From contig OZ024742.1 in the NCBI GenBank assembly GCA_964016885.1, positions 25,420,001-25,484,000 of the forward strand: a stretch of DNA of 64,000 bases, read 5' to 3'. The stretch comes from Eledone cirrhosa (taxonomy: Eukaryota). Below the pieces are notes generated by a model. The model was not told where the DNA came from and searched no databases. It saw only the letters and a list, made by a program, of their open reading frames with translations. The stretch's first letter is position 1, and each line of letters opens with the position of its first letter. Both the position numbers and the translations under genes were made by a program. This document shows positions 47,670 through 60,807 of this stretch, one piece after another.

Positions 47670-48095
47670 ATTAAAACAATGAAATAAGAAAAAAACAATT
47701 TGATTTGTTAGTTCTTCAAATACTTCCAAATAAGGACATGATACTAACATACTACTAATTCTGAATAAAATTATTATTGGTTTTGAAAACAGCTGGTGAT
47801 ATGCATGTAAGTAAATATTCTCTTTATCTGGTATTTTGTAACTAACCTTACATAGATCAATAACGGAGTATAGCTACAATGTATTATCATCACCTAGAAA
47901 CGATCGTAAAGCAGTGAAGTATATCTCTAATGACTTGATATTTTTATTTCATTGTTTTAACTTATATCATGACTCTGTTTTCCTTTTAATGTTTTATTGT
48001 TTTCCGGGATTTATCTTAACCTACAACATTTTCAACATATGAATTACATCGAGTTCTTCATGCAGACTAGACCCCACAACTTACCGTGGATATCT
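47670..48095 (+). mobile_element. PLE 3'-end fragment (family G') with HHR at 47774-47917
   Basis: TTGAAAA-cagctggtgat...atcatcaccta-GAAA-cgatcg-TA-aagcagtga. Downstream sequence is homologous to 59690-59870 (minus). Confidence 0.78.
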
Positions 48096-48820
48096 CTGTG
48101 TATATATATATATACACACACCTGTATATACATATATATAATATATATATATGTATGTACATATATATATATATATACATGTGTATATACATATAAATAC
48201 ACACATATCTACATATAAATACACACATATACACATATATATACACATGTGTATATATGTGTATATATAGATACACACACTCACACACACACACACACAC
48301 ACACACACAGACACACACACACACACACACACACACACACACACACACACACACATATATATATATATATACATATATATAAACATACATACACACACGC
48401 ATATATAGCTATCCATGTGCGTGTGTGTATATATATGAATATTGAGTGAAATAATTTGTAGATATTTTTTCATCTGTTTATCAGTATGTTGCACCAGATA
48501 AACGTTGAATACCTCATGTAAGTAAGGTTGAATTCAGTGTTTGTGTTGTGGTGGTGGTGGTGGTGGTGGTGGTGGGGGATGTTTCTGACAAGGGGAATAC
48601 AAAGGAATGCCGTCATACAGAGATGGAATGTTGGTATATTATTGTGAAAATAAAGGAGTTATATAGGAGAGTGATGATAGGGTCGTAGATTTGATAGGGT
48701 GAGGTCTAATGAGATGAGATGTGAGGTATTGGAAGAGAAGATAGAAGAGGAGAGTGGCAATAAGAGGGAGGGAGAGAGAGAGAGAGGAATTTGGATCTTA
48801 TATCTGATTCAGAAACAAAT

Positions 48821-49085
48821 AATTGTTTTTACTTTTGGCACAAGGCCAGCAATTATCAGTGTATTACTGGTACTTTATTTTATCGACCCCATAAGGATGA
48901 AAGGCAAAGTTAACCTCGGCGGTATTTGAACTCAGAATGGAAAGGGCCGTAACTCTATGCGTCAAAGCATGTTGTCCGACCCGCTACCGACACTGCCAAT
49001 CCACCGATTCAGAAACAAATAATTGTTTCTACTTTAGGCACAAGGCCAGCAAATACCAGTGCATTACTGGTACTTTATTTTTACA
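48821..49085 (-). mobile_element. Full plus truncated SINE sharing a triplicated 18-bp target
   Basis: gattcagaaacaaataat at 48806, 49006 and 49090. Confidence 0.8.
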
Positions 49086-50144
49086 CTATGATTCAGAAAC
49101 AAATAATGATTATATGATTGGTATATAATCATACACACAATAACACTCACTCGGACGTAGATATATGAATACGAAAAATCGCGCGCGCGCATATGTTTAT
49201 ATAAAAATACATGCAAACATATATACATATACACAACTCTCTTTCAACCTCTGTCTATATGTATATATATATACACATAATTATATGTGTGTCTATATAT
49301 ATATATATATATATATATATACATATATATATATATATATATATATATATATATATATATATATATATATATAGTTATATACATATATATGTGTGTATAT
49401 ATAGTATATATATAAATGTGTGTATATATGAATATATATATGTGTGTGTGTGTGTGTGTGTGCGTGTGTATAAATTCAAATACAAACTGTTATATATATA
49501 TATATATATATATATATATATATATATATATATATATATGCATATTTAAATATAATTGTAGGTCCTATATAATTCTAGGTGCACATGTATGTTTAATCAC
49601 AGAAAACTGATATATCTACATGTCTGTAGGATATAATGTACACATTTGCTTCATACTTATATATATATATATATATATATATGTGTGTGTGTGTGTGTGT
49701 GTCTGTGTGTGTGTGTGTGTGTGTGTGTGTGTGTGTATTTGTATATACACACACAGACACATGTTGTTTGTACCTCTGTAAGTATATACTTGTTTAGTGG
49801 TGTGAGTGGGTATGTCTGTATCATGCATCCATATTTTAACAAACATTTGCATACCTGCATATGCATATATGGATATTTATATCTTGAATGCATATTTGTG
49901 TGTATCTATATATATATAACTGTATGTATATTTCTAAAAACTGGTAATTCTCCGAGACTGTATCTTGATAATTCCATTTTCATCAAAAATATATCTATGT
50001 TATTAAGTTTGGTAAACACAAAGATGAATTATCTTAACCAAATTGAATATTATTATTATTATTATTATTATTATTATTAATTTTATTATTTAGGAACAAC
50101 AAGAAATCTAATACCAACTGTATCTGAGTCAAATATTTCTTCCT

Positions 50145-50330
50145 ATTGGATTGGCAGTATCGGTATAGGGGCGGACGCCATGCTTTAACGTATACAGTTA
50201 CGGCCCTTGCCATTCTGAGTTCAAATCAGCCGAGGTTAACTTTGCCTTTAATATTTGCGGGGTTGATATAATAAAGTACCAGTAATGTACTGGGTAATTG
50301 CTGGCCTTGTGCCAACAGTAGAAACAGTTA
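50145..50330 (+). mobile_element. SINE (Meta/MESC-like)
   Basis: Matches the family consensus. Confidence 0.85.
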
Positions 50331-50455
50331 TTAGTATTTGTCACCACTCCCGTGTTTCTAGACGCATTTTTTCCTTATAAAATATTGTTAAAAAACAGCA
50401 CAACCCCACCCTGTAAGCCAATAAGGTCTGGGGTTTTGTCGATCGTTGTATTTTG

Positions 50456-57452: not shown

Positions 57453-57654
57453 TCTACCTGGAGTTGCGACCGATAGATAGTATTAGCAATTGGAAAGACC
57501 AACGGAAACATTGTTCCCTCGGTCCGATTTGACGAAAGTCGTTCGTTCCTGTCGTTCCTATGTATATATGTAAATAAATATGTATATATATATGTAAATA
57601 AAAATAAACAAATAAATATATATGTATGTATATGTATGTATATATGTATATATA

Positions 57655-58170
57655 CACAGAGGTATCCTCTGTAAGTTGTGGGGTATATTCTGTATGAAGA
57701 ACTCAATGTAACCCATATGTTGAAAATGTTGAAGGTTAAGATAAATCTCAGAAAACAATAAAACATTAAAAGGAAAACAGAGTCATGATATAAGTTAAAA
57801 CAATGAAATAAAAAATCAAGTCCTTAGAGATATACTTCACTGCTTTACGATCGTTTCTAGATGGTGATAATACATTTTAGCTATACTCAGTTATTGATCT
57901 TTGTAAGTTTACAAACTATCAGATAGAGAGAATATTTACTTACATGCATATCACCAGCTGTTTTCAAAAGCAATAATAATTTTATTCAATAATAATTTTA
58001 CTCAGAATTAGTATCATGTCCATATTTGGAGGTAGTTGAAGAACTAAGGAATCAAATTGTAGATCAATAACTGAGTATAGATACAATGTATTATCACCAT
58101 GTAGAAACGATCGTAAGCAGTGAAGTATATCTCTAAGGACTTGATTTTTTATTTCATTGTTTTAACTTAT
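57655..58170. mobile_element. Family G' PLE end (minus, HHR 57837-57976) with inverted partial copy at 58060-58170
   Basis: Minus: ttattgctt-TTGAAAA-cagctggtgat..atcaccatcta-GAAA-cgatcg-TA-aagcagtga. Confidence 0.82.
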
Positions 58171-58649
58171 ATATATATATATATATATATGTATATATAT
58201 GTAAATAAATATGTATGTATGTATATATATATGTATATATGTAAATAAATATGTATATATGTATGTATATATATATGTATATATGTAAATAAATATGTAT
58301 ATATATATGTAGATATGTAAATAAAAAAATAAACATATAAATAAATAAATAAAGGTACTAAATAAAGATGGCGTAAGCATACAATACAACGAGAGGAAAC
58401 ATAATAGCACCACTGACGATGTTGCAGATGTGCAACGAAAGAAATTTGTTAGACTATATTTATGTGTTTGTATCTATATTGTATCTGTATTTTGGACCGT
58501 TAGTCAGTCAATGGTAACATTGAGGACCGAATAAATTAAATTAACCGATATAAAAGACACAGAAGCGAAAACCAACCAAACAGTCAGTGTGTTCTGTTAT
58601 TAATTCTGGCAATATTATTACAACAATATGACCCTCCCCAAGTATAACA

Positions 58650-59680
58650 ATATATATATATATGTATATATATATATATATGGGTGTATATATATATATG
58701 TATATATATATATATATGTATATATATATATATGTGTGTATATATATATATATGTATATATATGTATATATATATATATGTGTGTATATGTATATATATG
58801 TATATATATATATATGTGTGTATATATATATATATGTATATATATATATATGTATATATATGTATATATATATATATATATGTATATATATGTATATATA
58901 TATATGTATATATATGTATATATATGTATGTATGTATATATATATATATATGTATGTATGTATATGTATATATATATATATGTATGTATGTATATGTATA
59001 TATATATATGTATATATGTATATATATATGTGTATATATATATGTATATGTATATATATATATGTATATATGTATATATATATGTGTATATATATATGTA
59101 TATATATATATATGTATATATATGTGTATATATATGTGTATATATATATGTATATATATATATATGTATATATATGTGTATATATATATGTATATATATA
59201 TGTATATATATATATATGTATATATATATGTATATATATATATGTATATATATGTATATATATATGTATATATATATATGTATATATATATGTATATATA
59301 TATATGTATATATATATGTATATATATATATATTTATATATATGTATATATATATGTATATGTATATATGTATATGTATATATATATATATGTATATGTA
59401 TATATATGTTATATTATATATTTGTATATATATATGTATATATATATGTATATGTATATATATATACATATATATATATGTATATATATATTATATATAT
59501 ATATATATATGTATATATATATGTATATATATGTATATATATAGGTATATATATGTGTATATGTATATATATGTATATATGTATATATGTATATATATAT
59601 ATGTATATATATAGGTATAAGTATATATATGTATATATATATATGTATATGTATATATATATATGTGTGTATATTTATAT
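58650..59680. repeat. ~1 kb degenerate (TA)n/(TATG) tract
   Basis: Directly visible. Confidence 0.95.
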
Positions 59681-59684
59681 AGTA

Positions 59685-60807
59685 TGTAGATAAATCTACC
59701 AAAATTTACGGTAGTGTCCAATCTGTATGAAGAACTCAATGTAATCCAAATATCATGAAAAGAGAAGACGCATTCAAAAATGTTCGATGAAAATCACAGG
59801 AAAACAGAGTCAAGATAAATTAATAAAAACAATGAATAAAAACAAAGAACAAGTTCCTTATATTAAAAAAATTCATCATTTTACGATCGTTTCTAGGATA
59901 TATATGTGTGTTGGTATGTATATCATATAAATCTATGTAAAAATATTACAAACTATCAGAGGAAATATACATACCTTCACATATATATGCTGTCTTCAGA
60001 AATAATGAGATTTGTTTATTGAAAAAAACGAACGAAGATTTAATATAGTAGGTCTGTTTGGGAACAGGTTTTGAATTGAACAATAGAAAAGTAGTAAGAG
60101 GTCAAGTTGATAGAATAGTAGTAGTAGAAATTTATTTCAGGGATATAGGAATGCAGACTTATGTTTTGAGTGTAAAGAATACTTTGAATGAAAAGAATAC
60201 TTTGGGGATGAAAAGAGGTCAAGCCGGTGAAAGGCACACGAAAATTTGATGTTATTAAAGAATAATGTTAAAAACGAAGGAGAGTAAAATTTTAGGCTAA
60301 AGGTATTACTGAGAAATACCAATGTTATTTAAAACAAGGAATTTAGATCTATAACAAGAAATTAAATTAATTGATAGGTATATTTATAGGGATAAATTTA
60401 TATTAATTAATAAGGATGTGATATATAATAATTAGATGTTATTAAAGAATGCTGTTAAAAACGAAGGAAAAATAAAATTTTGGGATAGGTGTAGTAGTGA
60501 GGAATACCGATCTTATATAGACTACAAGGAATCTAGATTCATAACAGGAAATTAAATTAATTTATATGTATACTTTTAGGTATTAATTATTAATTTTAGA
60601 GGGAAATAACATTATGAAGTTCTCTGTATTAAAGTACTAATTATAAATTAACTAAATTAAAAAAAACTAATTATAATAATATGTAAAATATAAGTTTAAG
60701 GTGTATATTAATTAGGTTTATAATATTTGAAGGTTCTTCTAATTCTATGATTGCAAGATATAATTAATTCTTGTCGCTTATTTAATAGGATATCCTTAGA
60801 TTTCATT
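59685..60807 (-). mobile_element. Second 5'-truncated Naiad-like PLE copy with HHR at 59873-60008
   Basis: MKSKDILLNKRQELIISCNHRIRRTFKYYKPN. 3' region homologous to 22200-23697. tcattattt-CTGAAGA-...-GAAA-cgatcg-TA-aaatgatga. Confidence 0.87.

Follow-up and report, generated by a model that had tools for sequence, protein, structure and literature searches.

Four hammerhead motifs lie in the window, the 64,000-nt stretch of DNA analysed here, within the pseudo-LTRs of two sister families of Penelope-like elements, A and B. The best explanation overall is that these are hammerhead-shaped RNAs which likely cleave the transcript of their element behind A17, probably in pairs held by a palindrome. 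On re-reading, the four sequences were as the initial annotation had given them. GAAA, the 8-nt palindrome ACGAUCGU and A17 are common to all four, and the core reads CUGAAGA (C3-G8) in family A and UUGAAAA (U3-A8) in family B. Domain II, put at about 105 nt by that annotation, measures 101, 107, 103 and 99 nt in the copies with position 3 at 23514, 47783, 57967 and 59999, and 99-126 nt in the families. What had been described as the first pair of stem II turned out to be a C10.1-A11.1 mismatch, which is present in 107 of the 108 family A copies and in all 45 of the family B copies compared. The 17-nt 3' half of the motif has 7454 exact matches in the genome and its reversed control has none, and thus the motif is not a product of chance. 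No hammerhead family was among the best 150 of 304 matches in an Rfam scan of the window.

Table 1 Hammerhead motifs, the element copies that hold them and putative splice-donor-like hexamers in the window
Feature	Position	Strand	Details
Family A type I hammerhead motif	23507-23642	+	Stem I 5' strand 23507-23513 (shortened); C3 23514; G8 23519; domain II 23521-23621; GAAA from 23622; palindrome 23625-23632; cleavage predicted after A17 23633; stem I 3' strand 23634-23642
Family B hammerhead motif	47774-47917	+	U3 47783; A8 47788; domain II 47790-47896; GAAA from 47897; cleavage predicted after A17 47908; stem I 3' strand 47909-47917
Family B hammerhead motif	57837-57976	-	U3 57967; A8 57962; domain II 57960-57858; G12 57857; predicted cut after A17 57846
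Family A hammerhead motif	59873-60008	-	C3 59999; G8 59994; domain II 59992-59894; G12 59893; predicted cut after A17 59882
5'-truncated family A element	22001-23341	+	End of GIY-YIG endonuclease frame (about 21990-22303); 3' UTR
Short family A pseudo-LTR copy	23507-23697	+	Holds the hammerhead with C3 at 23514
Short family B copy	47684-48103	+	3' UTR end; hammerhead; pseudo-LTR end; (TA)n tracts on either side
Short family B copy	57652-58060	-	Hammerhead
Inverted 5'-truncated family B half-copy	58060-58200	+	3' half-core at 58104
5'-truncated family A element	59681-60809	-	Last endonuclease codons (about 60810-60708); 3' UTR; hammerhead
Splice-donor-like hexamer (putative)	23539-23544	+	5' arm of domain II
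Splice-donor-like hexamer (putative)	47807-47812	+	5' arm of domain II
Splice-donor-like hexamer (putative)	59969-59974	-	5' arm of domain II

Families A and B alike combine the core N3-UGA-N7-N8-A with GAAA and can join positions 3 and 8 by a Watson-Crick pair, and both have the A15.1-U16.1 pair and an NUH cut site; the R10.1-Y11.1 pair (usually G-C) that closes stem II is found in neither. The predicted cut triplet is GUA in A and B and GUU in the large A subfamily. On the scale of subfamilies, position 17 has changed to U only: motifs with a base other than A there gave 8199 matches, the first 100 of which all have U and none G, and U at this position is permitted by the NUH rule (PMC7151607).

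The proposal that positions 3 and 8 changed together is borne out genome-wide: 3530 of the 4224 linked A17 cores are C3-G8 and 619 are U3-A8, against 75 mixed ones. Mixed cores are not common (37 C3-A8 and 38 U3-G8), and the 40 that were placed on a tree are scattered copy mutations. Patterns that leave out the core gave the same picture. Among the first 100 of 612 family B matches, counted by hand, U3 occurs in 100 and A8 in 97, and N7 is the sole core position to vary as a subfamily (C in 22); the first 100 of 2465 family A matches hold 96 C3-G8 cores and no U3-A8 core. A simple family classifier misassigned 3 of 108 and 4 of 98 copies in two sets and was corrected where it mattered.

A tree built without reference proteins places A and B as sister families (100/100), with a further family as outgroup. 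The outgroup has its own motif with C3-G8 and a 31-nt domain II, and C3-G8 is also the pair in each of the 26 Hydra rows that File S2 of PMC8557442 lists. C3-G8 would thus be ancestral; family B would have switched to U3-A8 once, its second substitution re-establishing the 3-8 pair. Since the covariation amounts to one change, on the branch leading to B, the thousands of copies count once. The linkage that the initial annotation had seen stands, but it represents one evolutionary event, and the swap itself is already known: natural U3-A8 cores were published in 2011 and reported to be active in vitro (PMC3088659), and U3-A8 in Penelope-like elements followed in 2014 (PMC4209133). What differs from the published cases is the 99-126-nt domain II, the C10.1-A11.1 mismatch and a predicted U3-A17 mispair in family B. 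U3-A8 is also carried by an unrelated young tandem repeat (7298 matches), for which a genome search for a C3-G8 sister returned one match, apparently chimeric.

Compensatory change in stem I was confirmed by two double changes between A and B (pair 3 from U-A to C-G, pair 4 from A-U to G-C). This stem is 9 bp long, shortened to 7 bp at 23514 and interrupted by one G-G mismatch in the motif at 47774. The claim that domain II keeps its pairing with different sequence holds for the outer helix, which, counting from the core, carries six double changes. Over 10 copies, pairing is kept in 95% of 140 cells compared with 24-62% for slid partners, a control that does not give a probability as the copies are related. 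Domain II folds below its dinucleotide shuffles in all four copies (z of -4.45, -2.73, -4.12 and -4.81 at 23514, 47783, 57967 and 59999). Stem II continues after C10.1-A11.1 with A-U and G-C, then a C-C or C-U mismatch. G10.1-C11.1 is listed as highly conserved in PMC4209133, and U-U exceptions at 10.1/11.1 have been published (PMC3088659). A contact between loops I and II could not be assigned, and there is no canonical loop II near the core. An upstream complement of the conserved domain II bulge was considered as a long-range contact and rejected as not common to both families, being present in 5 of 9 family B and 1 of 11 family A references.

The reverse transcriptases (RTs) of A and B share 74% amino-acid identity over 390 residues, and 63 of 93 four-fold codon sites differ, which is near saturation. 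Despite this, the 17-nt 3' block is identical between the families, the 5' block differs at positions 3 and 8 alone, and among subfamilies core variation is restricted to N7 and H17. The hammerhead is therefore likely, judging from these comparisons, to be under selection as a ribozyme. Two blocks outside the core, the domain II apex and a stretch about 150 nt downstream, are also conserved between A and B. One could ask whether the conserved blocks persist because, as DNA, they serve as a promoter or as signals recognised by the reverse transcriptase, the hammerhead shape being a relic. Such a role would fit the non-core blocks, the pile-up of copy 5' ends at stem I and the location of the Penelope promoter in the pseudo-LTR (PMC2377424). 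However, it predicts neither the compensatory pairs in stem I and domain II nor the 3-8 swap, nor variation confined to N7 and H17, and we regard it as quite improbable.

We then propose a model for the working of the ribozyme. In both families purifying selection would act on the core of the master copies, and the long domain II would stand in for the usual short stem II as a stable rod that keeps the core halves together. In a transcript with two pseudo-LTRs, the two motifs may meet and form an 8-bp intermolecular stem III, upon which both sites would be cut and unit-length RNA released. Folds were assessed as monomers and as the palindrome duplex. Stem III has 2 bp in the monomer, with a probability of at most 0.05, and 8 bp in the dimer, the duplex being worth -10.0 kcal/mol; the three helices of a type I hammerhead are present, stem I being open, and the monomer's active fold is 1.7-5.0 kcal/mol less stable than its minimum-energy fold. 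Dimer-type motifs of Penelope-like elements are known to cut poorly in vitro (PMC4209133). Copies in the genome extend 60-200 nt beyond the predicted cut site, so the template would have to be uncut or rejoined RNA.

In both family B copies U3 is predicted to pair with A17 (probability 0.85-0.86, compared with 0.00 in A), and family B is thus predicted to cut more slowly than family A; an analogous C3-G17 trap impairs cleavage (PMC3884650). The mispair may even leave the U3-A8/A17 form nearly inactive, with cutting in family B dispensable or rarely supplied and only family A an active ribozyme. It would agree with this that family B amounts to about one sixth of the A17 part of A (619 versus 3530) and that Naiads are described as spreading without canonical hammerheads (PMC8557442). 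Yet every other core position of B is kept although neutral sites are near saturation, the one subfamily change falls at the free position N7, and it is unlikely that two losses, independent of each other, would by chance have given back a Watson-Crick pair. We therefore consider a near-inactive B unlikely and retain cutting in both families as the preferred reading.

The initial annotation had called the element Naiad-like, which its domain order contradicts. Both families run from a hammerhead through a 290-400-nt 5' UTR, one RT-endonuclease frame and a 3' UTR to a second hammerhead. A single ORF with RT followed by a GIY-YIG endonuclease at the C terminus was read in one family A copy (L109) and two family B copies (L203 and L204), each broken by frameshifts or stops. 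The B endonuclease of copy L101 was matched by PF01541 with 23.2 bits against a cut-off of 22.6, and the Pfam search gave no family above cut-off for the other three of four proteins. Compared with the Hydra-clade description in PMC8557442, the endonucleases of L107, L109, L203 and the window (21990-22303) have the CxCX5C linker, CxxC and CxH around conserved E and N, and no CCHH. The RT resembles the printed Hydra alignment by eye, and (TA)n insertion, pseudo-LTRs and inverted 5' copies are all present. Of the Hydra-clade motifs RWK and DKT, the first reads RWR in both families, and the second reads DKT in L203 and L204 and DKA in L109. By domain order and endonuclease motifs, A and B are best taken as Hydra-clade Penelope-like elements. 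Naiads are defined in PMC8557442 by an N-terminal endonuclease and described as without canonical hammerheads, and a Naiad here would supply that clade's missing motif. Naiad-like features are the (TA)n targets and the DKA of L109, the Naiad form of the DKG motif. But L203 and L204 read DKT, the RT matches Hydra by eye, the endonuclease is C-terminal with CxCX5C, CxxC and CxH in both families, and no N-terminal GIY-YIG was found, the ORF opening with RT-proximal sequence about 290-400 nt past the hammerhead. Naiad identity was rejected on domain order and has almost no probability left.

The copies in the window are partial. The family A element at 22001-23341 finishes in a 5' half-core at 23330 (+), which with the 3' half at 58104 (+) makes two half-copies that the initial annotation had not listed besides the four motifs. 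The short A copy ends in (TA)n about 66 nt beyond its predicted cut site, and the pseudo-LTR of the minus-strand A element ends about 200 nt beyond. The B copy at 47684-48103 is 88-95% identical to the B copies L101, L203 and L204. The B half-copy at 58060-58200 is joined head to head with the copy at 57652-58060, an inverted 5' arrangement typical of Penelope-like elements (PMC8557442).

The pile-up of copy 5' ends at stem I marks a possible transcript start, and a putative splice-donor-like hexamer lies 24-25 nt after position 3 in both families. It is conceivable, though improbable, that domain II serves as internal promoter and 5'-UTR intron donor: transcripts would begin at stem I's 5' strand, and joining of the domain II donor to an acceptor ahead of the start codon would splice out GAAA, stem III and the cut site, so that a transcript would be either an uncuttable mRNA or a self-cutting template for retrotransposition. 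Drosophila virilis Penelope has its internal promoter and intron donor inside the pseudo-LTR, much like the putative ones here, with an intron of 75 nt that lies 46 nt past the start site (Schostak et al. 2008, PMC2377424), and the end of that intron maps to helix I of its hammerhead (PMC4209133). In contrast, start site and intron are here suggested by copy ends and the hexamer, and would lie at and inside the hammerhead. An acceptor about 160 nt beyond the cut site was rejected as a shared one (AG in 6 of 6 B and 3 of 36 A copies). No genomic copy has the spliced family A form expected of a 42-49-nt intron inside domain II, a weak test since intron retention is known for such elements. In contigs of five sequencing runs of unrecorded kind, no GT-AG junction was seen across the A pseudo-LTR or 5' UTR, which gives no evidence on splicing or expression. 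If this idea were true, the retained introns and the hammerheads of Penelope-like elements would be joined in one switch.

The nearest known systems are the Hydra-clade hammerheads (Craig et al. 2021, PMC8557442), which are alike in the C-terminal GIY-YIG with its CxCX5C, CxxC and CxH, the (TA)n targets, the type I motif near the 3' end, the short self-complementary stem III and, at the foot of stem II, a mismatch or an extra base. Their 26 tabulated rows are all C3-G8 with at most 26 nt between A9 and G12, whereas here there are 99-126 nt, a U3-A8 sister family and a C-A at 10.1/11.1 that is absent from that table. The minimal hammerheads that Cervera and de la Pena (2014, PMC4209133) described in metazoan Penelope-like elements share the pseudo-LTR location and a palindromic stem III implying dimers, and the Schistosoma Cercyon elements likewise have U3-A8 as a homologue of C3-G8 motifs (about 1300 hits). 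Their helix II has 7-8 bp with G10.1-C11.1 and one extra base, in contrast to a rod of about 100 nt without that pair. The natural U3-A8 variants (Perreault et al. 2011, PMC3088659) show the same compensated swap and a 10.1/11.1 mismatch (U-U), but those presented are mostly short prokaryotic or phage motifs, none seen with a long domain II.

Together, a natural sister pair in one genome with a clear outgroup lets the cost of the C3-G8 to U3-A8 swap be measured, including that of the U3-A17 mispair created by a GUA site. The genome holds at least 15,000 half-sites of the long-domain-II motif (7454 + 8199). The stem and spacer lengths with which published searches are described do not cover motifs with a domain II of at least 100 nt, and the counts of hammerheads in animal genomes are thus likely underestimates.

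All four hammerhead motifs described in the initial annotation are present in the window as written, two in each of the sister Penelope-like families A and B, which carry them in their terminal repeats (pseudo-LTRs). Each has GAAA, A17 and the perfect palindrome ACGAUCGU, with a stem I of 9 bp (7 bp at 23514). Domain II is a long arm of 99-107 nt, and in 4/4 motifs its predicted fold is more favourable than those of 200 dinucleotide shuffles (z -2.73 to -4.81). One detail needs correcting: at the foot of stem II, a C10.1-A11.1 mismatch, an A-U pair, a G-C pair and another mismatch precede the long helix. 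The 17-nt 3' half has 7454 matches in the 3.0-Gb genome searched (G000) and its reversed control 0. In an Rfam scan of the window, hammerhead was absent from the best 150 of 304 matches, in agreement with the expectation that standard searches miss these motifs.

Hammerhead motifs in the window and the outgroup element from the same genome
Feature	Position	Strand	Basis or remark
Family A motif, core C3-G8	23514	+	sequence reading
Family A motif, core C3-G8	59999	-	sequence reading
Family B motif, core U3-A8	47783	+	sequence reading
Family B motif, core U3-A8	57967	-	sequence reading
Third Hydra-type family, outgroup	L108:1458-3371	-	638-codon open stretch, C3-G8 motif, 31-nt domain II

The window holds other repeats. 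A near-perfect 139-nt palindrome (23344-23482; -119.7 kcal/mol with flanks), built from the head of another repeat, is an insertion that separates the motif at 23514 from a 5' half-core at 23330; in further stretches of the genome (L007, L012-L014, L018, L026, L164, L015, L040) that repeat abuts AATTAT sites, in stem I or elsewhere. About 235 nt of the 3' UTR of family A is duplicated in tandem at 22875-23110 and 23110-23341, with a decayed 5' half-core at the end, an arrangement common to many A copies (ending at -331). Two long perfect inverted-repeat hairpins (42800-42907 and 61031-61150) have microRNA-family matches below the gathering score, and the second is part of another repeat, present in L203 too.

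The proposed linkage of positions 3 and 8 is real. Patterns demanding both motif halves in A17 copies (spacer range 92-108 for U3-A8, 88-108 for other cores) returned 3530 C3-G8 and 619 U3-A8 cores, versus 37 C3-A8 and 38 U3-G8. Each mixed class amounts to ~1% of its parent family; by domain II sequence, 71/75 mixed cores belong to family A and 4/75 to B, and the 40 included in a 108-copy tree are scattered among intact copies. With core-free patterns, family A had C3-G8 in 96 and U3-A8 in 0 of the first 100 of 2465 matches, and family B had U3 in 100 and A8 in 97 of the first 100 of 612 (hand count). A large U17 subfamily of A (8199 matches; U17 in 100/100 of the first 100) fell outside the A17-based patterns; among 49 of its copies in 40 stretches, 44 have C3-G8 (one of them read by eye, 43 by script), 0 have U3-A8, and in 5 the 5' core is wholly or partly missing. 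This genome-wide subfamily (L227-L266) is larger than the A17 form found in the window and has G10.2-U11.2, a domain II of 104-126 nt and many near-identical copies. The 3-8 link is one of family identity, a single change on a single branch.

Between representatives of A (L109) and B (L203), identity is 74% over 390 residues of the reverse transcriptase (RT) and 60% over 152 of the endonuclease, and 63/93 four-fold sites differ. The core, probably under selection, is by contrast identical in the 17 nt of its 3' block and changed at positions 3 and 8 only in its 5' block. At subfamily scale, N7 (C in 22/100 B copies; G or U in a few A copies) and position 17 (U17 in A) vary, and core variation is confined to N7 and H17, where hammerhead rules permit it. 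Between the families, stem I keeps its pairing through two double and three one-sided changes, and the outer domain II helix has six double changes counting from the core, its pair 7 being G-C in 10/108 family A copies. In an alignment of 10 copies, 95% of the cells are paired (n = 140) versus 24-62% with slid partners, a control that used related copies and gives no probability. When 18 open stretches of this genome were placed on an RT tree, A and B were joined (100/100) against two other families. The outgroup copy L108 has its own C3-G8 motif with a 31-nt domain II, and the Hydra rows of PMC8557442 File S2 have C3-G8 in 26/26 with <=26 nt; we infer that U3-A8 is derived in family B and that the long arm goes back to the A-B ancestor.

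According to PMC8557442, the Hydra clade is marked by CxCX5C, CxxC and CxH in the endonuclease, which A and B share, and their RT resembles its printed Hydra alignment, judged by eye. Naiads are described there as having an N-terminal endonuclease and as being without canonical hammerheads; the endonuclease of A and B is C-terminal, and the label 'Naiad-like' therefore fails. The repeats of the host genome suggest that it is probably a cephalopod.

As a monomer, stem III has 2 bp with a pair probability of <=0.05, and the palindrome duplex between two motifs has 8 bp (-10.0 kcal/mol). Two motifs would pair through the palindrome into a dimer with an 8-bp stem III, the arrangement described for Penelope-like elements in PMC4209133, and a transcript that spans two successive pseudo-LTRs would undergo two cuts. 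The ends of copies lie ~60-66 nt or ~200 nt beyond the predicted cut site, so reverse transcription crosses it and the RNA template is uncut or rejoined. Counting against strong activity, G10.1-C11.1 is missing, no tertiary contact was assigned in the motifs, and a U3-A17 pair is predicted in B (0.85-0.86 versus 0.00 in A), resembling the C3-G17 trap discussed in PMC3884650. We consider a functional dimer-type hammerhead in these Hydra-clade elements likely.

Copy 5' ends give a further lead. Among 98 copies picked by their 3' half alone and examined over 450 nt, 31 run beyond; the remaining 67 include 28 whose end falls in the 25-nt bin holding the stem I 5' strand, versus 8 and 3 in the adjoining bins. 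One of these 28 is a long copy assigned in error, and allowing for head-to-head pairs reduces the rest to ~21 loci. In the U17 subfamily, 20/49 copies (12/40 stretches) end no more than ~10 nt from C3, and several of them show short stuttered repeats at the junction; 4 end inside domain II. A transcript start at stem I would account for this pile-up, and the inverted cases would be explained by fold-back of the near-palindromic sequence surrounding position 3. Penelope itself has a start site followed 46 nt later by a 75-nt intron within the pseudo-LTR, according to PMC2377424. Here, families A and B each have a donor-like hexamer 24-25 nt past position 3 (GTATGT in 89/104 A, GTAAGT in 33/42 B), in different alignment columns. 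A far splice acceptor was rejected (GG at the site in 33/36 A copies), and no genomic copy of the spliced form of a short intron was found; the tests leave a start site plus intron as a lead without support.

Natural C3-G8 to U3-A8 covariation is already stated in PMC3088659, and PMC4209133 gives ~1300 U3-A8 hits in Schistosoma Penelope-like elements, found, like family B, through homology to C3-G8 motifs. Of the initial interpretation, the linkage stands and the Naiad assignment does not, and the covariation is known and a single event here. What is new is the length of domain II, together with the C-A foot and the sharpness of the 5' ends. In the literature and hammerhead tables examined in part (including PMC7229834, PMC6765202, PMC7151607, PMC2920678, PMC6962438 and a 2026 preprint), we found no such element described with a domain II of ~100 nt; the longest in the published tables consulted is ~53 nt, in a spike-moss element (PMC8557442 File S2).

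Other hammerhead motifs occur in this genome. Several short type I families with palindromic stem III are found at 15643 (+) of the window and in L023, L030, L042, L045, L049, L061 and L097, many with U-U at 10.1/11.1. A family in L051 (minus strand, -166 and -722, copies 556 nt apart) and L054 has a 50-nt domain II with C10.1-A11.1, which suggests that long arms and a C-A foot recur in this genome. U3-A8 is not rare here either, given an unrelated tandem repeat of 591-595-nt units with 7298 matches (U3-A8 in 99/100 of the first 100). This young, non-coding repeat, outside the window (L113-L142, e.g. G000:C1:50595878-50600129), has units 96-99.8% alike among 8 distinct ones, often in inverted arrays; its type I motif combines U3-A8 and G10.1-C11.1 with a GUC site, a palindrome of 10 nt and a domain II of 57-62 nt. 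The repeat resembles a non-LTR retrozyme whose core is variant, and represents the cleanest test case for U3-A8 activity.
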